Shown here: piece after piece, positions 19,064 through 49,993 of the stretch
Layout of the letters: each line of letters begins with the position of its first letter
Numbering within the stretch: the stretch's first letter is position 1
Origin: Candidatus Binatia bacterium
GTDB taxonomy: Bacteria > Desulfobacterota > Binatia > UBA9968
NCBI GenBank assembly: GCA_036504975.1
Contig: DASXUF010000105.1
Location: forward strand, 67,728-131,727
DNA: 64,000 nt
Direction of reading: 5' to 3'
The notes under the pieces: model-generated
What the model was told of the DNA's origin: nothing
Databases searched by the model: none
What the model saw: only the letters and a program-made list of their open reading frames with translations
Translations under genes and position numbers: made by a program

Positions 19064-20197
19064 CTACGGGCGGAGTTTACCGAAGAAGCCGCTTTGTTCG
19101 ATCTCTTTCAGGAGACCGTTGTCGATGAAATCCGCCGCCTTCGCTTCGCGGGCATCCTTCGATTCGATGCTTTTGAGAATCCTGGCTACTCCTTCAGAGC
19201 GGACGTAAGGAATGGCATCGCCCGTGTGGCGCACGCCGTAAACCTGGTACAGCTCGCTCAGGATTTCCGCGTCCGTGACCCGGGTATATTTGGCCAGCAC
19301 TTTCATGCTGAATTCTTTGTCGGTTCTGAGGCGGTGCAGCCCGTGAATGAATCCCCGCAGGAACTTCACCACCGTTTCTCGGTTCGAGCGGATGTAAGAC
19401 TTGCGGGTCGAGAGCGGCGTGTTGGGAAAAACGATGCCGAGTTGGCCGACGTCGGCCAGCTCATATAAGCCCAACTTTTTCGCGCGGAAGTTGCTCGGCG
19501 AAGACAGGACCGCCGCGTCCAACGCGCCGGAGCTCACTCCCGCCTGGCTCTCCGGCATGCCGCCCGTCTGCAACACGGTCACGTCGCGCCCCCTCTGAAG
19601 TCCCCACCGCTCCAGAGCGAAATCGAGCGCCAGGTCGGTCGATCCGCCGAGCCGCGTCACGCCGACTTTTTTTCCCTTCAAGTCGGGCGGATTTTTAATC
19701 TCCGGCCGGGACATGATCGAGAAAACCATCGCGTTGCCGGTGTTGGCGATCAAAACCAGATCCGCCCCTCTGAGCGAAGCGTTGACGACGGGAACCGACG
19801 GCCCGAAGGCGAACTGAACGTCGCCGCCGAGCATCGATTGTATCAACAGCGAGCCGCCGCCGATGTAGAGGAGCTTTGTTTCGAGCCCTTCGCGGCGGAA
19901 ATAATCCGCGTCTTGCGCCACCCATAGAGGCGCCATCGCGCCGCTGATCGCGCTGTAGGCGACGTGAATCGAGGCGCCGAACGCGTCGCCAGTCGAAGAA
20001 ATGAGCGACAAAACAACGGCGAGAAAAAATCCTTTCCAAAGATACTTGAAATTTCCCCTTGAATTTGGCTTACAGAATCGGAATAAGAATGCCTCGCGCC
20101 AAGACGCAAGGCGCGCCAAGTCCGGAGAAAGATTTCTTTCTTTGCGCTCTTGGCGTCTTGGCGCGATAAATTTTCTTGAAGTCGTTCTGTTCGACAT
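19064..20197 (-). CDS. NMT1/SsuA-like substrate-binding protein (start uncertain; long structured 5' region)
   Basis: Mature part is homologous to 12434..13414; no canonical start codon lies next to the signal peptide; ATG 20197 gives a ~55-aa N-terminal extension. Confidence 0.6.
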   Translation of the reverse strand: MSNRTTSRKFIAPRRQERKERNLSPDLARLASWREAFLFRFCKPNSRGNFKYLWKGFFLAVVLSLISSTGDAFGASIHVAYSAISGAMAPLWVAQDADYFRREGLETKLLYIGGGSLLIQSMLGGDVQFAFGPSVPVVNASLRGADLVLIANTGNAMVFSIMSRPEIKNPPDLKGKKVGVTRLGGSTDLALDFALERWGLQRGRDVTVLQTGGMPESQAGVSSGALDAAVLSSPSNFRAKKLGLYELADVGQLGIVFPNTPLSTRKSYIRSNRETVVKFLRGFIHGLHRLRTDKEFSMKVLAKYTRVTDAEILSELYQVYGVRHTGDAIPYVRSEGVARILKSIESKDAREAKAADFIDNGLLKEIEQSGFFGKLRP

Positions 20198-20212
20198 TTC
20201 AAAAGTAAGTAT

Positions 20213-21454
20213 CTAACATCTTGTGACGGTGCTCGATTTCTTGGAGGCGCCCTTGGCCCGCACGCCGGTGAATGAATCGATCTTGACCACTTCTCCGGCG
20301 CGCTCTTGGGTTAAAACTCCTTTCGGGATGCGGCCGTCCTGGACGGCTCGGATGCCGTCGAGAATCAGTTTTCTCAGTAGAATGACGCCGCGATCCGAGG
20401 TCGCCAGTTGCTCCTTCCGCGCGTCGATAACCGTCTGGGTCGCCTGGCACGCGATGTCCTCGCGCCTGACGCTGCCGCGAAAGGCGGCGTATTTCCGTTC
20501 GTCGTATGCCTTTTTTTCTTCTTTGGGAGTTAATTCGCGCGAGGGCGAGAGCTTCTCGAAAAACTTCGGGTCCGGACCGGTATAATAGTTGACCGTGAAG
20601 AGCGTGAAACGCTCGTCGTCGTTCGGCGTCAAGAACATGAAGTGCACGTTGTGCGAGCCGGTGCCCAGTGATTCCTTTGGTTGTTTGAAATGGGTGAACT
20701 CGGTATCGCCGATCTGCAGAATGCTCGGCAGGGCGAAGCTCTTTTCATCCACGTACTCCGTCTCCGGCGTTGGTCCGGGCTTGCGCGAAATGACTTTCAT
20801 GCCGTAGCCAGTTTCCACGGCGTCGAACGGCGGTATGTCCTTAAAGCTGAAGAACCAGCTTCTCCAGGTGCCGTCATTGGGGTCGCTGCGATGTAAGATG
20901 GAAAAGTGCACAGGATCGGCGCCATTCTCGATAAAGTTGAGCCAGTTGTAGTCGTAGTGGCGCGTGCTTTCCAGCGATCTCCGCCCTTTTTCATCGACCA
21001 GAGGATAATAGCGCGGCAGCGGTGGCGGGTCGTCTTGGTCCGGCCCCAGGTACGCGAAGATAAATCCGCCCTGCTCGCGCACCGGACAAGAAAGATGTTT
21101 CACCTTCCGGTGAAACGTGGCCTCTTTCGGCTCGGCCGGTTGTTCCAAGCATTGACCGGAGACATCAAAAAGCCAGCCGTGATACGGACAGCGGATACCT
21201 GTCTCTTCGATGTCGCCGTATTCGAGCGAGGTTCCGCGATGCGGGCAATGCAAACCCAACAAACCTAACTGCCCCCTGCCATCTCGAAACAACACCAACT
21301 CTTCGCCCAGGATCTTTACCCCCAAGGGAATGTCGCGGAGATCCGCCGTCGTCGCGACCGTCAACCAGTATCGCCGGAACCATTCGCCCGCCGGCGTGCC
21401 GGGACCGACGTGAGCCAGGTCGGAGAGGGTAACTTTGCTTTTTTTCCTTTTCAT
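20213..21454 (-). CDS. Rieske non-heme iron oxygenase alpha-subunit-like (paralog of 7763..9001)
   Basis: CPHRG...CPYHGW Rieske motif; near-colinear similarity to the plus-strand copy. Confidence 0.8.
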   Translation of the reverse strand: MKRKKSKVTLSDLAHVGPGTPAGEWFRRYWLTVATTADLRDIPLGVKILGEELVLFRDGRGQLGLLGLHCPHRGTSLEYGDIEETGIRCPYHGWLFDVSGQCLEQPAEPKEATFHRKVKHLSCPVREQGGFIFAYLGPDQDDPPPLPRYYPLVDEKGRRSLESTRHYDYNWLNFIENGADPVHFSILHRSDPNDGTWRSWFFSFKDIPPFDAVETGYGMKVISRKPGPTPETEYVDEKSFALPSILQIGDTEFTHFKQPKESLGTGSHNVHFMFLTPNDDERFTLFTVNYYTGPDPKFFEKLSPSRELTPKEEKKAYDERKYAAFRGSVRREDIACQATQTVIDARKEQLATSDRGVILLRKLILDGIRAVQDGRIPKGVLTQERAGEVVKIDSFTGVRAKGASKKSSTVTRC

Positions 21455-21572: not shown

Positions 21573-22421
21573 TTACGGCAGGTGGTTTTCCCAAACGTGC
21601 TTGGCTTCGAAGCCGAGAAGTTTGCGGGCTCGGGTGGAATCCAGGCCGCTCCAGTTACCCGCGAGCTCCGGCCGGGCTTTTTTCACGCCGGGAAAATAGC
21701 GGCGCAACAGAACGTCCGTCGGCTCTCGCACCGTGCTCGTCGGCGCGGCGGCGATCAGCGCCACATGCCCGCGCAGATCCTTCTCCACCGCCAGCCGGCA
21801 GGCGACGGCACCGTCGCGCGCGTCGATGTAACTCCAGAATCGGCCCAGCTTGACGCTCGGATCCTGCCACTTCTCGGCGAAGGTCTGATAGCTCAAATCG
21901 AAATGGACCCCGGGAAGGCGCAAACTGCAAATGCTGATATCGTGAGCGGCGGCGAAAGAATCGGCAATTTTTTCTCCGACGACTTTCGATAGACCGTAGG
22001 GGTCCTGCGGCTTGCACGGATGCTTTTCGTCGAGCGGCAGATAGTCCGGCAAAAACGGCTTATGCGCGTATAAAAAACCGAACGCCGCCGTGCTCGAGGC
22101 GATCACGACGCGGCGAATCCCCTCTCTCGTCGCCCCGTGGAGCAGATTGTAGACTGCGGTAACGTTGTTGCCGAACGTCTCGCAGTCCGGCGCAATCGCC
22201 GGCGCCTGGTAGGCGCCGAGGTGAACGACGCCGTCCGCGCGTTCGAGAGCCCGGTAGACGTCTTCCGCGTGCGCGAGATCGACGATCCGCGAAGGGCAGA
22301 TTTCCGTCGGGGGAGCGACCCGGTCGAGGCTGAGGACATCGTAATCGTAATCCAGCAGTTCGTGGATCACATGCTGCCCCAACCGCCCGCTCCCGCCCGT
22401 GACGACGATTCTTTGAGCCAT
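21573..22421 (-). CDS. NAD-dependent epimerase/dehydratase family protein (paralog)
   Basis: IVVTGGSGRLGQ start; similar to 18058..18954. Confidence 0.75.
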   Translation of the reverse strand: MAQRIVVTGGSGRLGQHVIHELLDYDYDVLSLDRVAPPTEICPSRIVDLAHAEDVYRALERADGVVHLGAYQAPAIAPDCETFGNNVTAVYNLLHGATREGIRRVVIASSTAAFGFLYAHKPFLPDYLPLDEKHPCKPQDPYGLSKVVGEKIADSFAAAHDISICSLRLPGVHFDLSYQTFAEKWQDPSVKLGRFWSYIDARDGAVACRLAVEKDLRGHVALIAAAPTSTVREPTDVLLRRYFPGVKKARPELAGNWSGLDSTRARKLLGFEAKHVWENHLP

Positions 22422-22469
22422 GATTAAAACTTATGGGCGTCCATTAGGTGCATGAAGTGATCAGGAATT

Positions 22470-22754
22470 TTACTCCTTGAGCGGCAAGATCTGTTCGTCT
22501 GGCTCAAGTTTACGTAATCGCGGGCCCTTTTTCTCTTCTGACCCTAAATCAAACCGTGAGCCAATCGGTTCTTTAGAGGGCCGGAGAGGACGCCAGCCAG
22601 AATTGGTGAGCATGTCAGCCTCCGAACTGAGCCGGTTGATTCGCACGATTCGTTGACCCATCTTCTCATATCTGTAAGGTGTAAGAATTCCGAGCGCAAC
22701 GACTGCAAACAAGATCGCTATAAGCGCCCAGTGAAGCCAATCGAGCCTCTTCAT
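22470..22754 (-). CDS. Hypothetical small membrane protein (first gene of low-GC islet)
   Basis: ATG 22754 (MKRLDWLHWALIAILFAVVALGIL); one TM helix; no known domain. Confidence 0.4.
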   Translation of the reverse strand: MKRLDWLHWALIAILFAVVALGILTPYRYEKMGQRIVRINRLSSEADMLTNSGWRPLRPSKEPIGSRFDLGSEEKKGPRLRKLEPDEQILPLKE

Positions 22755-22983
22755 CTTCTCACCCCAGCGGTAGGAATGGAAATAGTATGGTTTGTTTTTT
22801 CGTCTCGCCCTTCCTGCCTCGAAAACGGATTTTCCCACGCTGGTCGTGCACTAGTCAACAAAGATTTTCCTTGCCTTTTGCCGGGCCACCCTTAAACTGA
22901 GAAAAGAAAAAGGGGTTTACTTGAGCTGATTAACGAACGGCCGGGAGATTCTCTCACGCTCGGCCTGGCGCCTTCCCTTTCAA

Positions 22984-23006
22984 AGAGAGAGAGAGAGAGA
23001 GAGAGA
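22984..23006. repeat. (AG)n dinucleotide microsatellite, ~11.5 units, immediately upstream of ATG 23019
   Basis: agagagagagagagagagagaga read directly; ends 12 nt before the start codon. Confidence 0.9.
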
Positions 23007-23018
23007 CGGTGAGAGAGC

Positions 23019-23864
23019 ATGTCGCAAATACCTAGTAAATCTCCACTTAACTTCCTTCACCCGTCCGCCGCTCTGGATCTAGAGGACATCCTAAAAAAGA
23101 CTGATAATGTGGAACGGATTGCAGAGGCTTTCCGGAAATATTTTCAAGGCAACCTTTTCCGAGCTACCTGCCCAGATGATTCCGGTGATCCAGCGCAAAG
23201 GATGACGGAAGTGCTTTGCCGGGCTGTAGTTGAAAAACTTAGGCGGTATTTCCCCAAAGAAACTTCACGCGATGGGTCAACCCTGATCCGTTGGCACCCA
23301 GAGCAGACTGCGGTGTTTTTAAATCAGGCTCTCGGCTATCTGATTGATGTCTGGATTAATGATTTCGGGAAAAGGCCCGCCGATGATCCTGTTGTAAGAT
23401 GCGAAAGGCTTTTGCCTAGAATAGCCAAATGGCCTCATCTAGACATGCGCGGCAGGCCTCAGCATGGAAATGTCTTTCAACTAATTTACCTAGCAACATA
23501 CGAAGATGTAATGAAATGCCTGACAGAGTATCCCAGAAAATCGAGAGGACGATTTCCTCACGATGATAGAGACCGGCGCCGAAAATTCCTAGCCACTATC
23601 TTTACTGAGCTTCCTCAAGTACCGGGCCGCAAAGGCCGATGCCTTTTCCATCCGCAATCCGGCGAGCTTTTCCTTGAGGCAACAGAACAGGATATAGAAA
23701 TTTGGATTGATCTCTCACGCCATGCCTTGGCCATGGAGATCACCTGCCGAGTAGTTAATAAAACACTAGCGGCAGACTGGCAGGAAGGTGGGCTTAGCCC
23801 CGAATCGCTTCATCGTCTTCTTCCACGTCTTAGAACCCTCTCGCACTTCATTGACGGCGCTTGA
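23019..23864 (+). CDS. Hypothetical protein (no recognisable domain), low-GC islet
   Basis: 281-aa ORF with ATG start; local GC ~48-50% vs ~65% flanks. Confidence 0.5.
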   Translation: MSQIPSKSPLNFLHPSAALDLEDILKKTDNVERIAEAFRKYFQGNLFRATCPDDSGDPAQRMTEVLCRAVVEKLRRYFPKETSRDGSTLIRWHPEQTAVFLNQALGYLIDVWINDFGKRPADDPVVRCERLLPRIAKWPHLDMRGRPQHGNVFQLIYLATYEDVMKCLTEYPRKSRGRFPHDDRDRRRKFLATIFTELPQVPGRKGRCLFHPQSGELFLEATEQDIEIWIDLSRHALAMEITCRVVNKTLAADWQEGGLSPESLHRLLPRLRTLSHFIDGA

Positions 23865-24167
23865 GTCGCTTACAGAAGTAGAACTCACTCGTTATCTCTT
23901 TCGATCTTTGACACGGCTGCATAAACTTGCAGCATGTTTCAGAAAATCAAAGATGCCACAAGTGATAACGTATTGATCGGGAGGGTCCGATGATTACAAG
24001 GTTCCAATTTAAAGGGCCAAGGCGAATCTTGAGCTTTGACTACATGGGGCCACCGTGGACTTTTGTCGTCTTAATTTCGCTGCTAGGAGTTGCTCTCGCT
24101 CTAGTCCTGTCGTTGTTGAAGTTTCTGAAATAACGCGAGGAAGAGCACCGTGATCAGTGGATGTGAC

Positions 24168-24689
24168 TTATTCCCAGGTTCGGAACCTTTGGTGGGCTTG
24201 CTGTGTTTCTCGCAGGACTTTTTCCCATTCTTTTTTGAGCGGCTTCACGCTGAGTTGGGTAATCACGAGTCTGAGGATCTCTTCCAATGAAATGCGCCGC
24301 GTCGGTAAATGCAGCTTGGCAAGAATGCCGCCATGAACGTGCAAGTGCGGGTAATCGTACTGCGGCGTAGATGTCGGATGCCAATGATAGGCGAACAACT
24401 CGCGCCCCTGCTTGTCCTGAACGGCGTAAAGATACGCCACGGTTGAAACCTTCCATGGCCCAAATTGTCCCGGCGCCTCCGTGACCTTGTAATGCATCAG
24501 TACGGTGAGGAGCAGAACGGGATTGGAGCGGAGACTTACAGGATTACCGTTGTTCAGTACCACTGCGTGACGTTGATTGGACGGATCGGAGCCGCTTGTG
24601 ACCAACACGGATTTCGTAATGCAGGAAACAGCCCGGTTTAGCGGCTCAAGGAAATTGCGAACTGCTTGATGGGGAGAATTACCCGCCAA
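24168..24689 (-). CDS. Hypothetical protein, low-GC islet; overlaps upstream small gene by 11 nt
   Basis: 173-aa ORF; no motif recognised. Confidence 0.4.
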   Translation of the reverse strand: MAGNSPHQAVRNFLEPLNRAVSCITKSVLVTSGSDPSNQRHAVVLNNGNPVSLRSNPVLLLTVLMHYKVTEAPGQFGPWKVSTVAYLYAVQDKQGRELFAYHWHPTSTPQYDYPHLHVHGGILAKLHLPTRRISLEEILRLVITQLSVKPLKKEWEKVLRETQQAHQRFRTWE

Positions 24690-24918
24690 AAGGAAGTAGG
24701 AAAGCGACCCTCATGACTTCGGGTCGATCGGGGTTTTTAATTTGCTTCGCCCTCCACTTGCGGGCAAATTCCGGCCCGCTCATGCGAAGATAGCGGCGCG
24801 CCTGCCGGTCGAGAAGTTTTTCACCCTCCTCGCGGCTAAGTACTCTGAACCCGTTTTTGCCGTTCTTCTTCATGGTTTCGAGGTTAGCAAAAGACAAGAC
24901 GGAAGGCAATGCGAGCAA
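24679..24918 (-). CDS. Hypothetical small basic protein (likely start ATG 24873, ~64 aa)
   Basis: MKKNGKNGFRVLSREEGEKLLDRQARRYLRMSGPEFARKW...; co-oriented and overlapping with 24168..24689. Confidence 0.35.
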   Translation of the reverse strand: MLALPSVLSFANLETMKKNGKNGFRVLSREEGEKLLDRQARRYLRMSGPEFARKWRAKQIKNPDRPEVMRVAFLLPFGG

Positions 24919-25012
24919 TGGAACAATAGAGCAGTAGACCGCATTTCCGTATTGTCCATTGTTCCAATGTCCAATACTCCAATGCTCTAAATTTTTTGTG
25001 AAACAAAAAATT

Positions 25013-25086
25013 TGGGCCCACCTGGATTCGAACCAGGGACCGACCGGTTATGAGCCGGTAGCTCTAACCAGCTGAGCTATGGGCCC
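25013..25086 (-). tRNA. tRNA with CAU anticodon (elongator Met or lysidine-type Ile2), 74 nt, CCA not encoded
   Basis: Folds as GGGCCCA/TGGGCCC acceptor, GCTC/GAGC D-stem, ACCGG-CTCATAA-CCGGT anticodon arm, CCTGG-TTCGAAT-CCAGG T-arm. Confidence 0.85.
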
Positions 25087-25226
25087 GCGAGAAAATAACG
25101 ATGAATGTTGAATTGTGAGTTTTGAATTCACCCGAAGAGGCTCTCGCGATTACTTTGAGTTCTTTGTGTTCTTTGCGGTTCTCTTCTTTAACCACAGAGA
25201 ACGCAAAGGTCGGAGAAACCCGCAGC

Positions 25227-27011
<1,785 letters not shown>

Positions 27012-27049
27012 TTTCTCGCGCTTGACCGGGTCTCGGTTCTGGGGCCGGC

Positions 27050-28825
27050 TCACTGGCGTATGAGCTGCCGCTCTCTTCGGTCGACCTCTTGCCATTCGAG
27101 CATCCTTTCTCTTTTAGTCTTCTCGTCCTTCTTCTCTTCCGCGATCCGGATCGCCTGCCTGAGATCCCGCTTCAGACCGGTCAAATGCCGCTTATACAGA
27201 TCGGCGATCAGATCCCCCATCATCTTTTCGGACTCGTCTTCGGCAATGGTTTCCGCCTCCAGGACCAGGCCCGCGATCTTGGATGCGCGTTCGGAGGAAA
27301 ACCTTTCGGCCAGGCCGGCCGCATCGACGCTGTTCCGTTTACGCCACTCGGTGAGCATCTCCTGAAGAATTTCGTTCCATGCGGGGCTCAGCAAGGATTG
27401 CAACTCGGATTCCTTCTCCACGCGCTCGATCATGGCGGGAAAACGAAGCATGAGCGCGATCAGCAGGCGCTCGGTTTTCTCCTTGCCCGCCTCTGGAAGG
27501 GCTCCGGCGGACGGCGGCGCAGCGGCCGGCCGCTTGCCCTCGCCCGCTTGGCGCAGCGCCTCGCGCAAGAGATTCTCCCGAATGCCCAGTCTATCGGCCG
27601 CCGTCGCGGCTAACAGATCGGCCTCGAGTGGATTGCGCACTTTCGCCAGCACCCGACTCATCTCCTGGGCGATTTGGCTCTTTCCCTCCAAACTTGACCC
27701 GTAACGTTCTCTTAACCAGGTAAAATAGAAATCTGCAAGGGGACTAGCCAGGTCAAGGATCTGTTTTTCCAGAGCCTCTTTTCCTTTCGAACGGACAAAG
27801 GTGTCAGGGTCTTCTCCTTTGGGCAAGAAGGCACCGAGCCCTAACAGGCCGCCTTCGATGAAAATCTCAAGGCTCCGGGCCGCGGCCTTTCTTCCCGCCT
27901 CGTCGCCGTCGAAAAGAACAATGATTTTTTTCGTGTAGCGTCCCAGCATGCGCACGTGGTCCGGCGTCAGCGCGGTGCCGAGCGTCGCCACCGCGTCGGC
28001 GACGCCGAACTGCGCCAGGGCGACGACGTCTAAGTATCCTTCCACGACCAGGACGCGGTCCGTCTCGCGAATCCGCTCCCTGGCCTGGTATAGACCGTAC
28101 ACGGTCGACCCCTTGCGAAACAGCGGCGTCTCGGCCGAGTTGAGATACTTGGGCATCCCCTGGCCGAGGACCCGGCCGCCGAAGCCGACGATTTTTCCCG
28201 CGGCGTCGGCGATCGGAAACATGACCCGGCCGAAGAATTTTTCTCCGTAGCGCTCCCCGCCCCGGTCGCTCAAGAGTCCCAGGCGGATCGCGTCCTTCAG
28301 CGAGAGCCCTTCTTTTTTAAGGAAGGCGGCAAGACCCTGACCGGTCTCGGGCGCATAGCCGAGATCGAAGCGGCGCGCCGTTGGCTCATCAACCCCGCGC
28401 GACTTGAGATACTGGAGCGCGCGTCTCCCCTCGCCCTGGCCGAAGAGGAGCCCATGAAAATAGGCCGCCGCTCTTTCGTTCAAACGATAAAGAGATTCTC
28501 TCTGCTCGGCGTCTCTTCTCGCGCCGGGCGCCTGGAGCCGCTCGACGACGATTCCATAGCGCTTGCCGACCCGCTCCACCGCCTCGGGGAAGCTCAGATG
28601 ATCGTACTGCATCAGGAAATGGAAAACGCTCCCTCCCGCGCCGCAGCCGAAGCAGTGAAAGATGCCTTTTTCCTCGTTGACGGTAAAGGAAGGAGTCTTT
28701 TCGGAGTGAAACGGGCAGAGCCCGAGATGATTGCGGCCGGTTTTCTTGAGGGTCAGATAGTCCGAGATCACCTCCACGATGGAAGCGCGATCGCGGATCT
28801 CGATGATCTTTTCTTCCGGGATCAT
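27050..28825 (-). CDS. dnaG: DNA primase DnaG
   Basis: Zinc-ribbon [13 protein letters not shown]...HCFGCG and TOPRIM EGYLDVV...DGDEAG motifs. Confidence 0.9.
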
Positions 28826-42059: not shown

Positions 42060-44336
42060 ATGTCCATCCAACTTACAAGCGTCCGGCAGAATCCTCAGCC
42101 AAAAATGAATCCCGCCCAAGATCGCGTCATCGATAAGCTCAGGATCGTTCTGATCAAGCCCTCCAAGTACGACGACGACGGCTACGTCATTCGCTTCTGG
42201 CGCGGGGTTCTCCCCAGCAATACCCTCAACGTTCTCCACGGGTTGACCGAAGACGTGAAGCAGCGCCGGGCTCTCGGTGACATCGACCTCGAAGTCGTGA
42301 CGTTCGACGAGACGGCGGAAAAATTGCCGGTCAAAAAAATCATTCGCTGGAGCCGCCGCACCGGCACCAAGCTGCTCGTCTGCCTCGTCGGCGTCCAGAC
42401 CAACCAGTTTCCGCGCGCCTTCGACCTGGCCAAGCGGTTCCGCGCGCACGGCATCGACGTCATGATGGGCGGCTTTCATACCAGCGGGACCGTCTCGATG
42501 CTGGGCGATCAGGAGCCCGATATTCAGGAGCTTTTCCGCGAGGGTATCACCGCAATTTCCGGCGAGGTGGAAGGAAAATGGGAGGGTATCCTCGCCGATT
42601 GCCTCGCCGGCCAACTGAAGCCCCTCTACCATTACGCCGGGGACCTGCAAAACCTCGTGGACATCGGCGACGCGCCGCTGCCGGTGACGAGTCCGAAGAC
42701 GATGAAGCACTTCGCCCAGCCGGCCTTCGGCACGGCGGACACCTCGAGAGGCTGTCCCTTCGCCTGCTCGTTCTGCACGATCATCAACGTCCAGGGGCGC
42801 AAGATGCGCGAGCGCAGCCCGGAGAGCATCGCCGCGATGGCGCGGAGAAATTATCACGAGCACGGTGTGACTTTTTACTTCTTTACCGACGACAACTTCG
42901 CGCGCAAGAAACTCTGGCGCGAAACCTTTGAGGCGATCATCAAGCTCCGGGAAGAAGGTATCAAGATCTCCTTCATGATGCAGGTGGACCTCGCCAAGAA
43001 GCCCAAGGACTTCGTTGCGCTCGCCGCCAAGGCGGGCTGCTCGCAGGTCTTTATCGGCATGGAGAGCGTCAATCCGGAGAATCTCAAGGCCGAAGGCAAG
43101 GCGCAAAACAAAGTCGAAGAGTACCAGGGCATCATCAAGGAATGGCACGACGCCGGCATCGTGGTTCATACCGGCTACATCATCGGCCTTCCCTGGGACA
43201 CGAAGGAAGGCGTGAAGCGCGACGCCGAGTATTTGATGAACGTGATCCAGCCGGATCAGGCTTCATTCTTCATGCTGACGCCGCTGCCGGGCTCGCAAGA
43301 CCACAAAGAGATGAAGCAGCGCGGCGAGTGGATGGACCCGGATTTCAACAAACGCGACTCCTTTCACGCCACCATTCATCATCCGCACATGAACGCGGAG
43401 GAATGGACGCGGGCCTACGAGGACGCCTGGAAAGCGTTCTACAGCAAGGAGAACATGATTCGCGTTCTCTCCCGCTGGAGCCACAAGCCCAGGGCCTACT
43501 GGAACCTCATGTCGGTCTTCTTCTGGTACAAGAACGCGGCGTTGATCGAAAAGGAGCACCCGATGATCGCGGGCTTTTTCCGGCTAAAAGACCGGACCGC
43601 GCGCCGTCCCGGATTTGCCGTCGATCCTCTGCCGGTCCACATGTGGAAGCGCTCCAAAGAAATCGCCCGTCTTTTCATCTCGTGGGCCAAGTTTTTCAAA
43701 GAGATGGAAGAAGTCTGGCTCCAGACGCGGAAAAAAAGCGACCGGGAAGAGCGCTGGCTGGAAGAGATTCAGAGGATTCAGGGCGAGATCTGGCAGTCGC
43801 TCAAGATCGCCGAATGGCAACAAACCTACAACAATGCCAAGGCGGCGCTGCCCGCCAAGGCCAAAGCCCTGCTCGACCCGTTTGAAGAATTGTCCTCGAA
43901 GGTCCTGGTCAGCCGTGACGACTTGAATTCATTCCTGCGGAAGTGGGCGAGGCTACCGAAGCGCCTGCAAAAATTGCGCAACCGTGTTGGGTACGACGGC
44001 GAAGCCGCGCGCCGGCTGGAAGAAATGTCGCGCATCCACAATACCGCGTGGGCGGGAAGAAAAATTCAGGAATGGCAGGAGGCTTACACGCGCCTGCGAA
44101 AAGTTCTCCCGTCCAAATTCAGCCTGCCGCAAATGAAGTTCGATGCCTTTACCAACCGCGCCTTTTATTCCCGCCAGGACCTGCAGAAGTTTTGGGCCGC
44201 GAACGTGGACCATCTGAAAGGCATGCGGCTCTGGAAGGTCCGCCCGTGGAAGCTGGTAAAATATCTCGCCAAAGATTTTTTCATTAGCACGTCCTTCGCC
44301 TCATCCTTCAAGTCCGCCACCCGGTCGCAATACTAA
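42060..44336 (+). CDS. B12-binding domain-containing radical SAM protein (class B), with ~250-aa C-terminal extension containing an internal repeat
   Basis: N-terminal cobalamin-binding region, CPFACSFC radical SAM cluster motif, repeated IAEWQQTY.../IQEWQEAY... segments. Confidence 0.7.
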   Translation: MSIQLTSVRQNPQPKMNPAQDRVIDKLRIVLIKPSKYDDDGYVIRFWRGVLPSNTLNVLHGLTEDVKQRRALGDIDLEVVTFDETAEKLPVKKIIRWSRRTGTKLLVCLVGVQTNQFPRAFDLAKRFRAHGIDVMMGGFHTSGTVSMLGDQEPDIQELFREGITAISGEVEGKWEGILADCLAGQLKPLYHYAGDLQNLVDIGDAPLPVTSPKTMKHFAQPAFGTADTSRGCPFACSFCTIINVQGRKMRERSPESIAAMARRNYHEHGVTFYFFTDDNFARKKLWRETFEAIIKLREEGIKISFMMQVDLAKKPKDFVALAAKAGCSQVFIGMESVNPENLKAEGKAQNKVEEYQGIIKEWHDAGIVVHTGYIIGLPWDTKEGVKRDAEYLMNVIQPDQASFFMLTPLPGSQDHKEMKQRGEWMDPDFNKRDSFHATIHHPHMNAEEWTRAYEDAWKAFYSKENMIRVLSRWSHKPRAYWNLMSVFFWYKNAALIEKEHPMIAGFFRLKDRTARRPGFAVDPLPVHMWKRSKEIARLFISWAKFFKEMEEVWLQTRKKSDREERWLEEIQRIQGEIWQSLKIAEWQQTYNNAKAALPAKAKALLDPFEELSSKVLVSRDDLNSFLRKWARLPKRLQKLRNRVGYDGEAARRLEEMSRIHNTAWAGRKIQEWQEAYTRLRKVLPSKFSLPQMKFDAFTNRAFYSRQDLQKFWAANVDHLKGMRLWKVRPWKLVKYLAKDFFISTSFASSFKSATRSQY

Positions 44337-44420
44337 TTTCCTCCGTTTTAATTTCCTTCTCTCTTAGAGATTTATTCAGCCGTGACTGTAGGGTTGGGCT
44401 GTGATAATATGTGCTAGGAG

Positions 44421-44681
44421 TTGATGGAAGGTTGTATGGCCCGACCAGATTTACTGAAAAAATTAAAGGAACTGACGCCGGCCGAACGGCTCAGCGTTGC
44501 GGAGGCTGCTTTGCGTCTCGTTCGGGAAGATCTTCGGAAAACAACTCGCCCGGCAAAAGAAAAGAACCTCGCTAAGGCGGCAAAGGCTCTACTACCGGAC
44601 TATAAGTCTAAGGGCGAGCTCACTGTCTTTACTGCGCTTGATGGCGAGGATTTTTGTGAAAAGGAAGTGAAATCTGGCTAA
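44421..44681 (+). CDS. Putative antitoxin / addiction-module component (helical, no known fold assignable)
   Basis: 86-aa ORF with RBS AGGAG; ends 6 nt before the MazF-like reading frame opens. Confidence 0.4.
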   Translation: MMEGCMARPDLLKKLKELTPAERLSVAEAALRLVREDLRKTTRPAKEKNLAKAAKALLPDYKSKGELTVFTALDGEDFCEKEVKSG

Positions 44682-44686
44682 TCAAT

Positions 44687-45001
44687 TTGGACCCGACGAT
44701 TGGCGCCGAGATCAAGAAAACCCGCCCGGCAGTCATCGTCAGCGATGACGCGATTGGAATCCTGCCGCTCAAAGTAATTGTCCCGATTACCGAATGGAAA
44801 GAACGCTATGCCGTGGCGCCTTGGATAGTCCGATTAGATCCCGACGGACAAAATGGGCTACAGAAGCCTTCTGCCGCCGACACATTTCAAGTCCGCTCGT
44901 TAGCCCAGGAAAGATTTGTGCGACGACTTGGAAAGCTCCCGGACCGTGTAATGGATTCAATCGCAAAAGCTCTCGCTGTAGTATTAAGCTTTGATATTTA
45001 A
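44687..45001 (+). CDS. MazF/PemK-family endoribonuclease toxin-like, apparently 5'-truncated
   Basis: ...INLDPTIGAEIKKTRPAVIVSDDAIG...VIVPIT matches MazF strands 1-3. Homology (KGSEIWLINLDPT) extends upstream of TTG 44687 to an in-frame stop at 44657 with no canonical start. Confidence 0.55.
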   Translation: MDPTIGAEIKKTRPAVIVSDDAIGILPLKVIVPITEWKERYAVAPWIVRLDPDGQNGLQKPSAADTFQVRSLAQERFVRRLGKLPDRVMDSIAKALAVVLSFDI

Positions 45002-45191
45002 ACGCATGCGCCTCGTGCAAAGTCCGACCGTGGAAGCTGTTAGATTCGAACACCGGCTTACCGAAGAAGTAGATAAAGTTAGCCATGAAATCACTAAGTT
45101 TAAAGCCGACCTCATTCGCTGGATGTTCATCTTCTGGGTCGGTCAGATCGGCGTAATCACCGGAATCCTGTTCGCGTTCTTCAAACGATAA
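44991..45191 (+). CDS. Small hypothetical protein with C-terminal TM helix
   Basis: 66 aa (or 61 aa from ATG 45006); ...WMFIFWVGQIGVITGILFAFFKR. Confidence 0.35.
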   Translation: MIFKRMRLVQSPTVEAVRFEHRLTEEVDKVSHEITKFKADLIRWMFIFWVGQIGVITGILFAFFKR

Positions 45192-45264
45192 GTCTTTCAG
45201 TCTTCTCCCTCAGCGCCTCCGCGGTGAGATACGAATTCCTTTTCACCACTGAGACACCGCGCGG
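45190..45264 (+). repeat. Structured repeat R1 (AAGTCTTTCAGTCTTCTCCCTCAGCGCCTCCGCGGTGAGATA...TTCACCACTGAGACACC)
   Basis: ~70-nt unit ~80% identical to R4 at 48131-48198; core CCCTCAGCGCCTC(C/T)G(C/T)GGTGA also at 45625-45652 and 45669-45695. Confidence 0.6.
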
Positions 45265-45610
45265 CTACGCCGCAACCAAAGTAGAAACAGACATTTCACC
45301 ACGAAGGTCTTAGCACACGAAATTTCTTCCCCTTGGCGTCCTTTGCGCCTTTGCGCGAGATAACGCATTTCGGTCCTTCTCTGTTATCGCGCCAAGATGC
45401 CAAGCTCGTAAAGTTTTACTTTCAGGCATAGTATTACGAAAGTCAAAAGTTATAAAGTTTACGAATCCTTCGTGGCCTTCGTGCGCTTCGTGGTGAGATC
45501 GTATTTTCTTGTCGATCCGGCAACTGAGGATTGGTGCGCAAGAAAATTTGCGCAAACCGCGAAAACTCTCAGGCATAGTATTACAAAGTCCGCAGGAGGG
45601 TTTGTTTTAT

Positions 45611-45700
45611 TCCTGATCTCCGCGCCCTCAGCGCCTCCGCGGTGAAAATTCCTTGATTTTACTCTGTGCCCTCAGCGCCTCTGTGGTGAGATATCTTAAG
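45611..45700 (+). repeat. Tandem core repeats R2/R3 (CCCTCAGCGCCTCCGCGGTGAAAATTCC / CCCTCAGCGCCTCTGTGGTGAGATATC) followed by palindrome GGGTTAACCC
   Basis: Read directly. Confidence 0.6.
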
Positions 45701-46448
45701 GGTTAACCCAAACTCCGTTGTAAATACGCTCGACCTCCGGAATCGTCCGCGCCGCCTGCTCCGCCCTGAATCTTTCATCCGCTGTTTTTACATGGCCGTT
45801 GAGATAGGCCGTGTCGCCGATAAAAGCCACGCTCACCCCCATAACGTTCCACCTGCCGAAGGCTTCATGGATGTCTGCCTCGACCTTTCTCCACCGGGCC
45901 TCGACTTCTTCATACGATTCGGCCGGTTTTTCCCGGGGAAGAAACATGGCGTCGTCCCTTTTCACGTACACCACCGACTTGAGTTTGTTTGAGCGAACGA
46001 TCAGCCAATCGCCCTCCGAGCCGACGACGTTGAGCCTGGCTCCCGACCCAACCTCGTCCACGACGGAAGCCGAATTATTCGGCCGTGACCGCACCGAAGT
46101 TCGCCGGATGGTCTGATAGATTCCCGGTTCCGCAGGCCGCCGTACAAACGGCCTCTCGGAAACCTTTGCCTGTCGCTGAGCGCGTGATGAAGTTTGAGGT
46201 TTGCTTGGAGAAATCTTCGCGCTAGGTTTTGCGGGCTTCTCTTGATCTTCGCTGATCTCAGGAAGGTCGGATGAAGATTCCGGCGGCGGCGTTGTTGGCT
46301 CCTGAGTCTGCGGGCGCGGCTCCTCCTGCCGCGAAGCCACATCGGGCGCCTCCGTCGATCCGGGATAGAAAACCCATTTCCCGACGAAGAAGACAAAAAG
46401 TGCTGCGACGATCACGGCGGCCGTCGCCATCAGCGCCTGACGAGTCAT
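45696..46448 (-). CDS. Membrane-anchored protein with Pro-rich linker, SH3b-like and C-terminal BON domain
   Basis: N-terminal TM AAVIVAALFVFFVG, ...GSGARLNVVGSEGDWLIV (SH3-like), BON-like VSVAFIGDTAYLNGHV... Confidence 0.55.
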   Translation of the reverse strand: MTRQALMATAAVIVAALFVFFVGKWVFYPGSTEAPDVASRQEEPRPQTQEPTTPPPESSSDLPEISEDQEKPAKPSAKISPSKPQTSSRAQRQAKVSERPFVRRPAEPGIYQTIRRTSVRSRPNNSASVVDEVGSGARLNVVGSEGDWLIVRSNKLKSVVYVKRDDAMFLPREKPAESYEEVEARWRKVEADIHEAFGRWNVMGVSVAFIGDTAYLNGHVKTADERFRAEQAARTIPEVERIYNGVWVNP

Positions 46449-46452
46449 AGTT

Positions 46453-47027
46453 CTAGCTACGCGACTCCAGTTTACCAGACTTTAACTGCTTCATCGCCGC
46501 TTCAAGCACCTCCTCACTAATCCACCGCTTCTTCCCAAGCTGGATGATGCGGCTCTCCGCTGACCCGAGATCGAGAAGCTCCCGCCGATGAGCTTCCAAC
46601 ACCAACTCGAGACTTCGGAGACAAGTGATGCCTTTTACCCGGGCGACTTCCCACGCCCGCTCGTCATCTATCAGCACCACGTCTGCATCAAGTTCTTCCG
46701 CAAGGGCTAATGCTTGAGACTCCCCTGCTCCGAGCCGCTCCGCCAGGTAAAGTTTCAATTTCGCGTCTTCCTTGACAGCGATTCACGTTGGCGGGGTTCT
46801 ACCCAGTGGGCCAAGGAGCGAAGTTTTTTAAGAACGGATTCTCTCTGGATCTTTGGAATCTGTAGTTTAGGCCGCCTAACCACCCGCTCGTATTCGTCAA
46901 ATATCTCAGGCGAAAGAAAGAGAGCGACTCGTTTATTAAACGCGAGTTCGAGAAGCAAGGCGGGGATGCCTCTATCTGAGATGAGGCCGGAAACCACCAC
47001 ATTGGTGTCATAGACCGCCTTGAGCAT
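46453..47027 (-). pseudogene. PIN-domain (PIN_3/VapC-like) toxin gene interrupted by a frameshift near 46757-46785
   Basis: N-half MLKAVYDTNVVVSGLIS...VEP (frame A) continues as ...KEDAKLKLYLAERLGAGESQALALAEELDADVVLIDDE (frame B); the fused sequence fits the PIN_3 pattern with 4 acidic positions. Confidence 0.55.
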
Positions 47028-47033
47028 GCAAGA

Positions 47034-47342
47034 TCAGGAGGCTAGCTTCTCTCTCCGTTCCTCCCGCGCCGCTCGTATCTCCGCGTTGATTTCGTCCAGA
47101 CTGAGCTTCGCGACACCGGTTCGACGCGCCTCTTTGCGAATTTTTCTGAGCGCGACCGGTTCTTTTATCTTGAGAACGCTGCGCACGAAATCCTCATACC
47201 CGAGGATGACAGCAGCGGCCTCTCCTTTGCGGGAGACCACAAACCGCTCTTTATTTCCTCTTACCCTTTTTAGAATCTCCCCGAATTCCTTCCGCGCGAC
47301 TAAAGCGGGTATTGTTTTCACTTTTAAGACACCTCGTGCCAT
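47034..47342 (-). CDS. Phd/YefM-type antitoxin
   Basis: KTIPALVARKEFGEILKRVRGNKERFVVSRKGEAAAVILGYEDF; RBS AAAGGAG 8 nt before ATG; immediately upstream of the PIN gene. Confidence 0.65.
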   Translation of the reverse strand: MARGVLKVKTIPALVARKEFGEILKRVRGNKERFVVSRKGEAAAVILGYEDFVRSVLKIKEPVALRKIRKEARRTGVAKLSLDEINAEIRAAREERREKLAS

Positions 47343-47378
47343 TATCGTCTCCTTTTCAGTTTACACTTCTCAATACGA

Positions 47379-47597
47379 AATATATCAAGCTTGCCGCACT
47401 CTTACAAAGCCGGCGCAAGAGAAACCAATGCCTTCACCGAGGCTCGGAGATGACGTCCAGCAGCGCGGGGAGCTTTGTCCCTTTCCCCTTAGGGTGGACA
47501 CCGAAGCCCTGCGCAACCTTGGGAAAATCTACCACCGGGTCCGCTCACGTGCATGCCGATGCCGGCGTTCTCGACCGGCCGCTTGCGGATGGCCAGC
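47379..47597 (+). pseudogene. Degenerate duplicate of the 3' end (~65 C-terminal codons + 30 nt downstream) of TPP-enzyme gene 49994..51772, with an internal ~55-nt deletion
   Basis: 31-nt identical block AATATATCAAGCTTGCCGCACTCTTACAAAG at 47379-47409 and 49940-49970, then ~75%-identical colinear sequence to ~47597 / ~50216. Confidence 0.7.
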
Positions 47598-47758
47598 CTT
47601 TTAACGGAGGCCGGGTGTTGCCGACGAATAAGTTGCATGATTTTTTAAAGTTCTGGAAGTGAAAAAGCGGTAACGAAACGCCTTCGGCCGATTTAATACG
47701 ACGGAGACGAGGATAAGCTGGTGCCCGGTGATGAAGGGGATACGGGTTGCTTCGGGCA

Positions 47759-48013
47759 TTATACGATAACCGTATAGCCTTCAGGAGCAACCGGTCCGGC
47801 AAAGAAAACGTAGGTCATCTTTTGAGGATTTCGCTCGCCAAAGCCACGGTTTACTTCCACCAGGTCCCGGCGGTTGTGGCTATGATCCAACACACGGCCA
47901 AAAAGAGGGCCTCTAACCTTGTCAACTTCTGTGACCTCAACGAGAACCCACTCGTTGGGATATCGCTGCTCGATTTCTGCGATGGAAAGCGCTTCCCCAA
48001 ATTTAGATTTCAT
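47759..48013 (-). CDS. Small hypothetical protein (84 aa)
   Basis: ATG start; no assignable domain. Confidence 0.4.
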   Translation of the reverse strand: MKSKFGEALSIAEIEQRYPNEWVLVEVTEVDKVRGPLFGRVLDHSHNRRDLVEVNRGFGERNPQKMTYVFFAGPVAPEGYTVIV

Positions 48014-48130
48014 GGCTTCAAAAATTATACCACGATATCTTCAAAGGCAAGGCGGCTCTGGGAAGACCTTTTTGCCTCTCAAGGCCCAGAGGCGTGATCA
48101 CCTGAATCCTCTTTGTATTCTCCAAGCGCT

Positions 48131-48198
48131 AAGTCTTTTAATCTTCCCTCTCAGCGCCTCGGCAGTGAGATATCCGATTTCACCGCAGAGACACGGAG
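48131..48198 (+). repeat. Structured repeat R4 (AAGTCTTTTAATCTTCCCTCTCAGCGCCTCGGCAGTGAGATA...TTCACCGCAGAGACACGG)
   Basis: Colinear with R1, with paired substitutions in the predicted stems. Confidence 0.6.
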
Positions 48199-48209
48199 TT
48201 TGCAGAGAG

Positions 48210-49043
48210 TTAGTGGAGACGCGCGGCGTTTTTTCTGAGGTTCTCGACCTGCCTGAGTATCTCGTCCGCGTCGGCTGCCTCGGGGGCGAGTCTGAGATAC
48301 GTCTCAAAGTCATCGATCGCTTGGGAAAAGTGTTCGAGCTTAAGATAGAGCAAGCCGCGGTCGCGGATCTCTTGGGGCGAAGTCGGATCGATGATCACCA
48401 GACGCTCGGCCGTGGAGAGGGCTTTGGGGAAATCTTCCCGGCGCAGATAGATCGCCTTCAAGTTGTTCAGCATCCGCTGGATAATGTCTCTAGTCGATAC
48501 CGGCGCGAGAAAATCAGGGTGGAAGGCGACCTTGCCGCCGTAGAGACGGTCGAGCATTCCTTGCAGCTCATCGGCCGTGCGAACTTCGCCGTTGTCGAAA
48601 GGGTCAATTACAATCTCGCCTTCGTCGCCGACGTACTTGACCAGAAAATGACCCGGGAAACCGATACCGTGCAGTTTTAGCTCGACCCTTCTGGCTACCT
48701 CCATATATAGGACGGAGAGCGTGATCGGTATGCCTTTCCGGCGCTCGATGACGTCGTTCAAAAAGCTATTTCTGGGATCGTAATAATCGTCCCGGTTGCC
48801 GCGATAGCCTTCTTGGGTAAAGAGGACCTGATTGAGGCAGGCGATCAGACGATAGGGGCTGTTTTCTCCAGCCGAGCGGTCGCGAGCCACAGCCGCAAGC
48901 TGATCCATCCGCGAGAGATACGTCTCGATCCGCAGGTCCGGATAGGTTTCCTGAGCGATGGCCAGAGCCGCGCGCCCGAGGTCGATCTTGTCGTCCGGAA
49001 GCGCAACGGCCGCGCGAAAATTCCTGTGGCGATCGTCCGCCAT
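48210..49043 (-). CDS. SirB1/YchA-like transglutaminase-like + TPR protein
   Basis: GIPITLSVLYMEVARRVELKLHGIGFPGHFLVKY resembles SirB1-family core; 277 aa. Confidence 0.6.
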   Translation of the reverse strand: MADDRHRNFRAAVALPDDKIDLGRAALAIAQETYPDLRIETYLSRMDQLAAVARDRSAGENSPYRLIACLNQVLFTQEGYRGNRDDYYDPRNSFLNDVIERRKGIPITLSVLYMEVARRVELKLHGIGFPGHFLVKYVGDEGEIVIDPFDNGEVRTADELQGMLDRLYGGKVAFHPDFLAPVSTRDIIQRMLNNLKAIYLRREDFPKALSTAERLVIIDPTSPQEIRDRGLLYLKLEHFSQAIDDFETYLRLAPEAADADEILRQVENLRKNAARLH

Positions 49044-49094
49044 TCAAATTTCCTCTCATTTAGCCGATCATTAACTAAAATTTTTCCGTTTACG

Positions 49095-49340
49095 TCATTT
49101 GGGATGAGATCGAATGTTGAGCAAGTAATAAATATCGCCCTCAATTCGAAAATAAAAACGCCAATCGCCGTTTACCCGAGCCTGCCAGATGTCTTGGGCC
49201 TCATCGTATTTCTTAGCACGAAGTGAGGGGTGGCGCATGTTTTGGAGCAAAAGAGCCGCTTGTTTTTGAAAGAGCTTTTGAATATGCGGTGGGGCTTTGG
49301 CATAACTCCGTAAGAACTGCGGAGCGTAGTCGAGACGCAT
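49095..49340 (-). CDS. ParE/RelE-family toxin (type II TA)
   Basis: 81 aa; ...WQARVNGDWRFYFRIEGDIYYLLNIRSHPK matches the RelE/ParE C-terminal fold motif; ATGA overlap with the upstream antitoxin. Confidence 0.7.
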   Translation of the reverse strand: MRLDYAPQFLRSYAKAPPHIQKLFQKQAALLLQNMRHPSLRAKKYDEAQDIWQARVNGDWRFYFRIEGDIYYLLNIRSHPK

Positions 49341-49609
49341 TAGGCGGATTTCTTTTTGAGTTTCCTGACCTCTCGATGTAACGATCGAACCAAGGACTTA
49401 GCGGAGTTAAAGGGGCCGTAGGTTTTCCCCTCCTTGACCTCCTTGACGGCCTGGGCCAGCTCTCGATCAAGCATAGCCTTTGGCGCAAGAGTAATTTTTT
49501 TTCCCTCTACTGTCGCCTCTAGCAGATCTCCCACAGCCACCTCCGCCTTCTTCCGTATTTCAGCGGGCAGGGTTACTTGGTATTTCTCTTTGACTTTTAC
49601 CAACGCCAC
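49340..49609 (-). CDS. AbrB/MazE/SpoVT-type (swapped-hairpin) antitoxin
   Basis: MALVKVKEKYQVTLPAEIRKKAEVAVGDLLEATVEGKKITLAP. Confidence 0.7.
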   Translation of the reverse strand: MALVKVKEKYQVTLPAEIRKKAEVAVGDLLEATVEGKKITLAPKAMLDRELAQAVKEVKEGKTYGPFNSAKSLVRSLHREVRKLKKKSA

Positions 49610-49702
49610 CGTGATTCCTCCATAATTACAAAGGAAGAAGTTTGCTTGACTTAGTATATGGTTAATCCAAGGCTTGTCAAATGGCTTACAACGGGCCCTC
49701 GG

Positions 49703-49876
49703 TCACTGATCTGCTGCAAGGCGCTGCAGAGTGGCAAGGCTGATCCGTTCCCCACGAGACAGCGTCTCAGAGATCTTTCTGCCCTCGCGTACGACAGCGT
49801 AAATGATGATGCCGTGAATAATGGCCGCGCCAACCAGAAAAAGGGTGTTAACCCAGACGAGTGTCAGCATTTCCAT
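49703..49876 (-). CDS. Small membrane protein (57 aa, one TM)
   Basis: RBS GGAAGGAG then ATG; MEMLTLVWVNTLFLVGAAIIHGIIIYAVV... Confidence 0.4.
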   Translation of the reverse strand: MEMLTLVWVNTLFLVGAAIIHGIIIYAVVREGRKISETLSRGERISLATLQRLAADQ

Positions 49877-49993
49877 ATTAGCTCCTTCCCCATTCACTCA
49901 CCCCTACTTCCAGCCGGCTAGGTGGCTTGGTCAGTGAAAAATATATCAAGCTTGCCGCACTCTTACAAAGTCAGCGCAAAACAAATCAATTTC

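Follow-up and report, generated by a model that had tools for sequence, protein, structure and literature searches.

A mosaic, integrase-less islet at the 3' end of a tRNA(CAU) gene in a Candidatus Binatia genome and its undescribed two-gene cassette

The stretch of 64,000 nt analysed here (in the following, the window) derives from a metagenome-assembled genome of Candidatus Binatia and harbours, at 22422-25012, a small low-GC islet between a tRNA(CAU) gene and a gene for a NAD-dependent epimerase. The islet is compositionally foreign, variable among close relatives, modular and recently exchanged, and it is very probably the remnant of a horizontally exchanged island. Its genes (A, B, orf47, C and D) are part of the mobile gene pool that these bacteria share. 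Two of them, D and C, form a cassette together with an upstream leader, and we consider it quite possible, with slightly less than even confidence, that this cassette is a toxin-antitoxin or defence module. The explanation as a whole, i.e. a composite remnant of mobile DNA that lacks an integrase, is located at tRNA(CAU) and has kept D-C as a toxin-antitoxin (TA) or defence module, is held here with moderate confidence.

Composition, content and boundaries of the islet

The GC content over 22422-25012 is 0.4956, while the window has a mean of 0.584 (standard deviation of same-size windows 0.026); the islet is thus the window's lowest-GC stretch of its size, ~3.4 standard deviations under the mean. 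A first-pass annotation of this DNA had noticed the low GC of 22440-25012, correctly, but had given the flanks ~65%, where they actually range from 0.58 to 0.64 (about 0.60). The codon usage of the islet is likewise atypical relative to backbone genes: GC at third codon positions (GC3) is 0.55 in A, 0.44 in B, 0.54 in orf47, 0.60 in C and 0.63 in D, as against 0.76 in the neighbouring epimerase gene, 0.86 in rpoD, 0.73 in dnaG and 0.71 in the Rieske gene. Composition is therefore not uniform, neither in a sliding GC scan (0.496 vs 0.584) nor in GC3 (0.44-0.63 vs 0.71-0.86), as had been suspected.

The four genes originally described for the islet are all real, but the count is five, with orf47 (23990-24133) being conserved in relatives; the intergenic gaps between the five open reading frames (ORFs) measure <= ~180 nt. 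None of the five has a match in Pfam, NCBIfam, PADLOC or PHROGs, in agreement with the initial impression of genes without recognisable domains, and PADLOC-DB v2 defence models yielded no family for any of them, even at E up to 1. The reported lack of an integrase also stands for the islet, as family scans of its five ORFs returned no integrase family. In an Rfam scan of the islet only the tRNA was found, and a promoter and terminator scan remained at background level.

A scan for rpoD among GTDB representative genomes returned relatives of <= 61% identity at best and no close genome; close relatives were reached via members of the 90% cluster of the epimerase. The order rpoD-tRNA-islet-epimerase recurs in four other assemblies from different samples, of which L082 and L084 are 100%, L083 is 99.4% and L081 is about 99% identical to the window. 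The exact B and epimerase proteins are present in NCBI as HEY3304640.1 and HEY3304639.1, and both also occur on a 163.7-kb JGI contig. At slightly larger distances the content of the locus changes. L087, with an rpoD of 92% nucleotide identity, has the order rpoD-tRNA-leader-epimerase with only about 165 nt before the epimerase gene, its homology covering window positions 25128-24927 and resuming from 22427 (blastn breakpoints). L085 and L086 (rpoD 96% identical at the nucleotide level) possess D, at 98% nucleotide identity, together with a convergent ORF6N gene, and are without C, orf47, B and A. This ORF6N gene, of the KilA-N type and resembling phage antirepressors, replaces C-orf47-B-A at 9417-10000 in L085 and at 443-1015 in L086; in L085, where ~67 nt are deleted, D is thereby re-fused to an ATG farther upstream. 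In L091, where rpoD is 80% identical at the nucleotide level, D-C-orf47 is followed by four unrelated genes and the epimerase is missing. Finally, L092-L094 contain D-C-orf47-B-A-epimerase at 84-87% identity to the window, next to a left flank of LysR/NMT1/DHDPS/cupin genes, with both rpoD and the tRNA absent from the locus.

The extent of DNA homology also differs. Homology to the leader and D-C stops at about 24105-24153 in L109 and L111, whereas in L091 and L110 it includes orf47 and stops at about 23972-23980; B and A are common only to window-type islets and L092-L094. Because homology ends at different points in different relatives, the islet is a mosaic of modules and not one unit. Four such modules may be distinguished, namely the leader-D-C cassette, orf47 (often found beside D-C), B, and A. 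The proposal of a remnant genomic islet at the tRNA is hence borne out by content variation (in L087, L085/L086, L091 and L092-L094), low synonymous divergence, codon usage and homologues in mobile contexts, although the notion of a single unit has to be given up.

Divergence between window and relatives was estimated according to Nei-Gojobori, for synonymous sites (dS) and as the ratio of non-synonymous to synonymous divergence (dN/dS). In the comparison with L092, dS and dN/dS amount to 0.32 and 0.04 for D, 0.37 and 0.17 for C, 0.16 and 0.31 for orf47 (91.5% amino acid identity), 0.27 and 0.23 for B, and 0.37 and 0.34 for A (75.5% amino acid identity), while the flanking epimerase and Rieske genes reach 0.80 and 0.19, and 0.94 and 0.11, respectively. 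Similarly, D and C reach dS values of 0.38 and 0.63 relative to L091, as compared with 0.93 and 1.45 in rpoD and dnaG; relative to L085, dS is 0.024 for D and 0.14-0.25 for the flanks. Synonymous divergence of the islet is therefore 2-3 times below that of the flanking genes, and the islet was thus exchanged between lineages after their split. Across comparisons, dN/dS ranges from 0.04 to 0.19 in D and from 0.16 to 0.17 in C; since values for all five ORFs fall within 0.04-0.34, they are real genes under purifying selection.

The tRNA(CAU) gene occupies 25013..25086 on the minus strand (ARAGORN; Rfam tRNA, 70.6 bits), and its 3' end at 25013 forms the left boundary of the islet. The gene itself is backbone: in 13 out of 40 distant genomes, too, rpoD has a tRNA(CAU) behind it at a distance of about 20-350 nt; the Acidobacteriota, Nitrospirota, Desulfobacterota, Bdellovibrionota and Rokubacteria are among the groups in which these two genes were seen as neighbours. 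No CCA is encoded, and the molecule has the pairs C4:G69 and C5:G68. It is probably a tRNA-Ile2 rather than a tRNA-Met; in E. coli, ileX (tRNA-Ile2) likewise adjoins rpoD. The spacer between rpoD and the tRNA (25126-25224) is longer in the window (98 nt) than in the 99%-identical L081 (17 nt), and the additional sequence contains a perfect hairpin (ctttgcggttctct / agagaacgcaaag).

On the islet side, the tRNA is followed by the leader of the D-C cassette (24874..25012, minus strand), which is rich in repeats and has a fold z-score of -2.4. Its first ~86 nt comprise an A/T hairpin (arms 24989-24999 and 25003-25013), four direct repeats of the ATTGGA type (about 24955-24985) and the sequence ATGCGGTC. 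Nowhere else does the window contain the ATTGGA cluster, neither as a second nor as an inverted copy. An inverted repeat of 15 nt with arms at 24916-24930 and 24955-24969 precedes D and is a candidate operator only. The tRNA-proximal ~85-100 nt of the leader are kept in L085 and L087, and the ~86 nt might for this reason be regarded as backbone. This reading was ruled out, as the same sequence follows tRNA-Lys(CUU) in L109 and L111: the window-type leader begins directly after that tRNA, ahead of D-C, and so belongs to the cassette. A leader that travels with D-C to another tRNA also implies that the boundary at the tRNA 3' end is real. The islet accordingly starts at the 3' end of tRNA(CAU), as had been claimed from the position of 25013, and L087 looks like a deletion derivative which retains the left end of the cassette, and not like a naive site. 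The right edge lies just upstream of the epimerase start (22427/22428). Searches of the window for attachment (att) repeats found no copy of the tRNA end when up to 3 mismatches were allowed over 22 nt, and a 13-nt search remained at chance level; the same applies to ccgggccaccc at ~22880, put forward earlier as a weak candidate for such a repeat, which has to be dropped.

The backbone flanks are rpoD on the left (25227..27095, minus strand, in the order dnaG-rpoD-tRNA) and the epimerase gene on the right (21573..22421, minus strand; Pfam Epimerase, E = 7e-26).

The D-C cassette and its companions

D (24679..24873, minus strand) encodes 64 amino acids and is the upstream partner of C (24168..24689, minus strand; 173 amino acids), which has a TTG start and overlaps D by 11 nt. 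A metagenome scan recovered 373 C-encoding stretches. In 74 of the best 80 of these loci, D lies directly upstream of C on the same strand, and in five of the remaining six the upstream sequence is shorter than 80 nt, too short for a test. The 11-nt overlap is found in 34 metagenome loci and also in L091, L092, L096, L097, L100 and the prophage genes gp30/gp31 described below; C's TTG start is frequently missed by gene callers. D occurs without C in L085 and L086, while C without D was never seen where this is testable. On these grounds D and C form an obligate pair, and they are probably translationally coupled.

The C family (33 homologue clusters, 27-87% identity) shares an invariant histidine cluster, YHWHP...PHLH...HLPT, as well as the likewise invariant Y86, Y88 and W155, with the HxH motifs being placed on predicted beta strands. 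The D family (48 homologue clusters, 59-100% identity) is characterised by an invariant C-terminal tail, PDRPE..R.A.LLP. An AlphaFold2 model of C is of high confidence (predicted local distance difference test, pLDDT, 91.8; predicted template modelling score, pTM, 0.87), and it found no match with Foldseek in PDB and BFVD, nor did the C sequence match PDB sequences. When each member of the C, D and B alignments was scanned against Pfam, the matches were weak, scattered and inconsistent, and a literature search found no mention of the YHWHP motif in this context. Several leads for C were rejected: DUF4160 (PF13711), suggested by the PHxHV motif, matches none of 26 C-family members at E up to 10; readings of the histidine motifs as HIT or HUH fail on the third histidine of 'HLHVH', which is not conserved, and on the missing fold match; and for a transposon of the HUH / IS200-IS605 or other type there is neither a transposase or Rep fold in the Foldseek search of C nor a pair of ends. 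We treat C as a putative effector or toxin and D as a putative antitoxin or regulator, and the cassette as undescribed and, to go by the model, possibly of a new fold.

Outside the Binatia, tblastn located the D-C pair in the Mycobacterium abscessus prophage prophiGD44-1 (gp30/gp31, among early genes), on a mobilizable Dermacoccus plasmid (with a 14-nt overlap) and on Pseudonocardia plasmids, annotated as hypothetical in each case. The M. abscessus mobilome paper lists prophiGD44-1 and places most of the prophage TA systems that it describes within early lytic genes; in the part of its text drawn on here, gp30/gp31 are not discussed (PMC8092301).

Other copies reside in genomic islands. One such island contains a 458-amino acid tyrosine integrase, HTH_17, a primase-like gene, Mrr_cat and DUF5677; in L097 D-C is located beside tRNA-Cys with ParE/Phd and PemK as neighbours, and elsewhere it lies downstream of tRNA-Phe with Phd and PemK. 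The domains of large neighbours are Pkinase-AAA_16, AAA_11/12 helicase-PLD, NERD-kinase and Eco57I/DUF7008 methylase. With four matches, Phage_integrase is the most frequent family in a set of 98 neighbouring ORFs, in which BrxA, Prim-Pol, a DNA methylase and IS110 also occur. The D-C loci are rich in tRNAs, with 20 in 335 kb, and D-C lies <= 225 nt from a tRNA in eight of them (Lys in L109 and L111, Phe in L118, L122 and L123, Ser in L134, Arg in L164, Met-CAU in L180), which amount to about six independent cases as L122 equals L123 in D-C and L118 is 98.7% identical. L111 represents a second integrase-less islet, with the order tRNA-Lys, D-C, a 263-amino acid ORF, a SEC-C protein, a 108-amino acid ORF and tRNA-Leu-tig-clpP-clpX.

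Two further observations concern these loci. Downstream of the D-C pair in L096 (9001-10654) there are ORFs of 163 and 268 amino acids, the latter starting with FILGAGAS, which we take to be a SIR2-like motif; they may be another defence gene pair. Moreover, the site beside tRNA-Cys and Fer4-acetyltransferase-CarD-IspD that holds the D-C/ParE-Phd/PemK island in L097 is occupied in L102 by an island with a B homologue, HTH_17, NYN and PIN, and seems to be an integration hotspot that these bacteria have in common.

B (23019..23864, plus strand; 281 amino acids) belongs to a rare family, with 3 matches among 5.8 billion proteins in a word-based search and 40 representatives among 1.84 billion with HMMER. 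Its AlphaFold2 model is all-helical (pLDDT 85) and without a PDB match, and tblastn against phage and plasmid records found no match. Contexts were informative in two genomes: in L105, B is followed by a 68-amino acid HTH_17 gene and then by Phage_rep_O and DnaB; in L102, it likewise precedes a 68-amino acid HTH_17 gene, in the tRNA-Cys island with HTH_3, NYN and PIN, which adjoins the same core genes (Fer4, acetyltransferase, CarD, IspD) as the D-C island of L097. As B precedes HTH_17 and replication or island genes in both, it is probably mobile-element cargo with a regulatory or structural rather than an enzymatic role. A function as an enzyme such as an integrase is unlikely, given that the family alignment contains almost no invariant residues.

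A and orf47 are both predicted to be small membrane proteins. A (22470..22754, minus strand; 94 amino acids) has an N-terminal transmembrane helix, is the last gene before the epimerase and shows only weak, sub-threshold family matches; an alternative GTG start at 22838 on the minus strand would extend it to 122 amino acids. The 47-amino acid orf47 (23990..24133, plus strand) is a predicted single-pass membrane peptide convergent with C; it was called as a gene in L093 and L094, and its DNA homology is present in L091 and L110 and absent in L109 and L111. The divergent intergenic region of A and B contains a (GA)11 microsatellite (22985..23006), 13 nt upstream of the ATG of B, which has 2 extra nucleotides at its edge in L081 and L083 and is missing in the L092 lineage.

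Elsewhere in the window, a second, milder low-GC stretch (about 44000-50000, GC 0.51-0.55) harbours many small ORFs together with a BON/SH3 protein and a transglutaminase-like/TPR protein. Relative to L081, a low-GC insertion of ~180 nt is located at 20033-20253, with the internal inverted repeat cgccaagacgc...gcgtcttggcg; it brings in a TAG stop that splits the Rieske-NMT1 gene, a single ORF of 735 amino acids in L081, L083 and L092, into ORFs of 413 and 377 amino acids, and could be a small element resembling a miniature inverted-repeat transposable element. A 91-nt tRNA-Lys(CTT) called by ARAGORN at 617-707 lies within GC-rich, coding-like sequence and is probably a false positive.

Origin of the islet and possible role of D-C

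In the scenario that we favour, the end of the tRNA would have been the insertion site of one or more integrative elements, which later underwent decay through deletion and recombination, with the integrase, the excisionase, the replication genes and the far att site being lost in the process. The persistence of D-C would reflect a TA-like addiction or a defence function, in which C could be a metal-dependent effector that uses the invariant histidine cluster and is kept inactive by D. D would bind to C through its invariant C-terminal tail, and might autoregulate the operon by attaching with its N-terminal part to the inverted repeat of the leader. A new accessory or defence role, as first suggested for the unknown genes, would be plausible for D-C in view of its context. 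A role of this kind would account for D-C often being the last gene left beside a tRNA, and for a relative keeping D alone where no testable locus keeps C alone. Stepwise decay would likewise fit the relatives, since L085 and L086 have D without C and L087 has the leader only.

Some observations weigh against this scenario. Since the islet lacks an integrase, terminal inverted repeats and a direct repeat that copies the end of the tRNA, its site-specific integration is something that we infer. L091 has D-C beside this tRNA even though its rpoD identity is only about 80%, and this looks like long residence rather than recent arrival. Scans for C and D did not find the pair in IMG/VR viral contigs, where the leader had no match either. 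Pfam, NCBIfam, PADLOC, PHROGs and PDB sequences, as well as Foldseek against PDB and BFVD, revealed no resemblance of D or C to a toxin, an antitoxin or a defence protein already known. Finally, the conservation of D (59-100%) exceeds that of C (27-87%), while in most type II antitoxin-toxin pairs the reverse holds, the antitoxin being less conserved than the toxin.

The alternatives differ in how much of this they can accommodate. D-C might be an ordinary accessory system, with C as a metal-dependent enzyme acting on a small molecule or RNA, D as its regulatory or chaperone subunit, and the mobile location being simply that of cargo. The metalloenzyme-like histidine cluster of C, the higher conservation of D, the long residence at the rpoD-tRNA locus suggested by L091 and the lack of similarity to any known toxin or defence family would all suit such a system; we nevertheless regard it as rather unlikely, as strict pairing of small genes with a short overlap and the repeated proximity of ParE/Phd, PemK, restriction-type, BREX (bacteriophage exclusion) and integrase genes are typical of TA or defence cargo, and as D remains without C in L085 and L086 whereas C is never without D where testable. 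It is improbable that the leader and D-C constitute an autonomous, integrase-independent cassette inserting at the 3' flank of tRNAs, in which C would be a histidine-cluster nuclease or recombinase of new fold, D its DNA-binding partner, and the hairpin with the ATTGGA repeats the recognition end. Such a cassette would explain that the same leader starts exactly at the ends of two tRNAs, the one with anticodon CAU in the window and tRNA-Lys-CUU in L109/L111, that in the eight metagenome loci (about six independent ones) the first gene next to a tRNA is D-C, that integrase-less islets exist within core regions (the window and L111), and that the HxH motifs of C lie on predicted beta strands. 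It is at odds with the lack of a second end, of an inverted repeat copy and of flanking direct repeats, and with the variable orientation of D-C to the tRNA, which is downstream of C in L134 and L180. Leaders are, furthermore, unrelated in other D-C subfamilies, most D-C copies lie within larger islands with integrases of their own, no HUH, transposase or recombinase fold was matched in the Foldseek search, and C lacks a conserved tyrosine or serine on a helix that could serve as nucleophile.

That the islet consists of native genes with vertical inheritance, whose low GC would result from low expression and from short, membrane-rich or disordered proteins, is highly improbable. Purifying selection on all ORFs and the presence of D-C at the same tRNA in L091, with its 80% identical rpoD, would be expected of native genes, but presence, absence and alternative cargo vary among relatives whose rpoD is 92-96% identical, dS in the islet is 2-3 times lower than in the flanks, L092 has the same islet next to another left flank, and homologues reside on a prophage and plasmids of another phylum. 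A chimera of assembly or binning at the junctions, conceivable for a window from a metagenome-assembled genome, is practically out of the question and refuted by the same arrangement in the independent assemblies L081-L084 from other samples.

As a decayed island beside a tRNA gene, the islet is an ordinary kind of feature; its added value lies in the D-C cassette, which is undescribed in databases, widespread in soil metagenomes, over-represented beside tRNA genes and within defence islands, and common to Binatia and Actinobacteria. Should D-C indeed be a TA or defence system, it would constitute a new family, and as an addiction module it would provide a concrete case of a module outliving its carrier element. 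That it founds a new TA or anti-phage defence family with a new fold is a tentative proposition, to which we give rather less than even chances. The copy in the mycobacterial prophage makes the idea testable in a tractable host.

Comparison with known systems

With tRNA-linked islands and decayed integrative elements, the islet shares its atypical GC and codon usage, a start at the 3' end of a tRNA, a content that varies among close relatives, and genes with homologues on a prophage, plasmids and integrase-bearing islands. What sets it apart from them is that an integrase, att direct repeats and a recognisable second end are all missing, that its size is only 2.6 kb, and that it is a mosaic of separately distributed modules. 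An islet of the L092 type is, moreover, joined to a left flank without a tRNA, and therefore homologous recombination, not site-specific integration, may be what moves the islet today. B recalls the early modules of mobile elements, which combine an integrase or regulator, an HTH_17 excisionase-like gene and replication genes, as the order B-HTH_17 is present in L102 and L105; in the window, by contrast, B stands alone, HTH_17 and the replication genes are gone, and its predicted fold has no match in PDB.

D-C lacks sequence or fold similarity to the known families of type II TA systems (e.g. Phd/Doc, ParD/ParE), and its small partner D is the more conserved one. What it has in common with them are two small co-oriented genes with a short overlap and strict co-occurrence, a location on mobile elements among TA and defence neighbours, and an orphan small gene where the large one is lost. 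Likewise, D-C differs from two-gene anti-phage and abortive-infection systems in that it matches no PADLOC model and is absent from IMG/VR contigs, but it shares with these systems a neighbourhood of Mrr_cat, BREX genes (BrxA, a PglX-like methylase), helicase-PLD and kinase-AAA_16/NERD genes, and its position among early prophage genes agrees with where most TA systems of M. abscessus prophages are reported to lie (PMC8092301).

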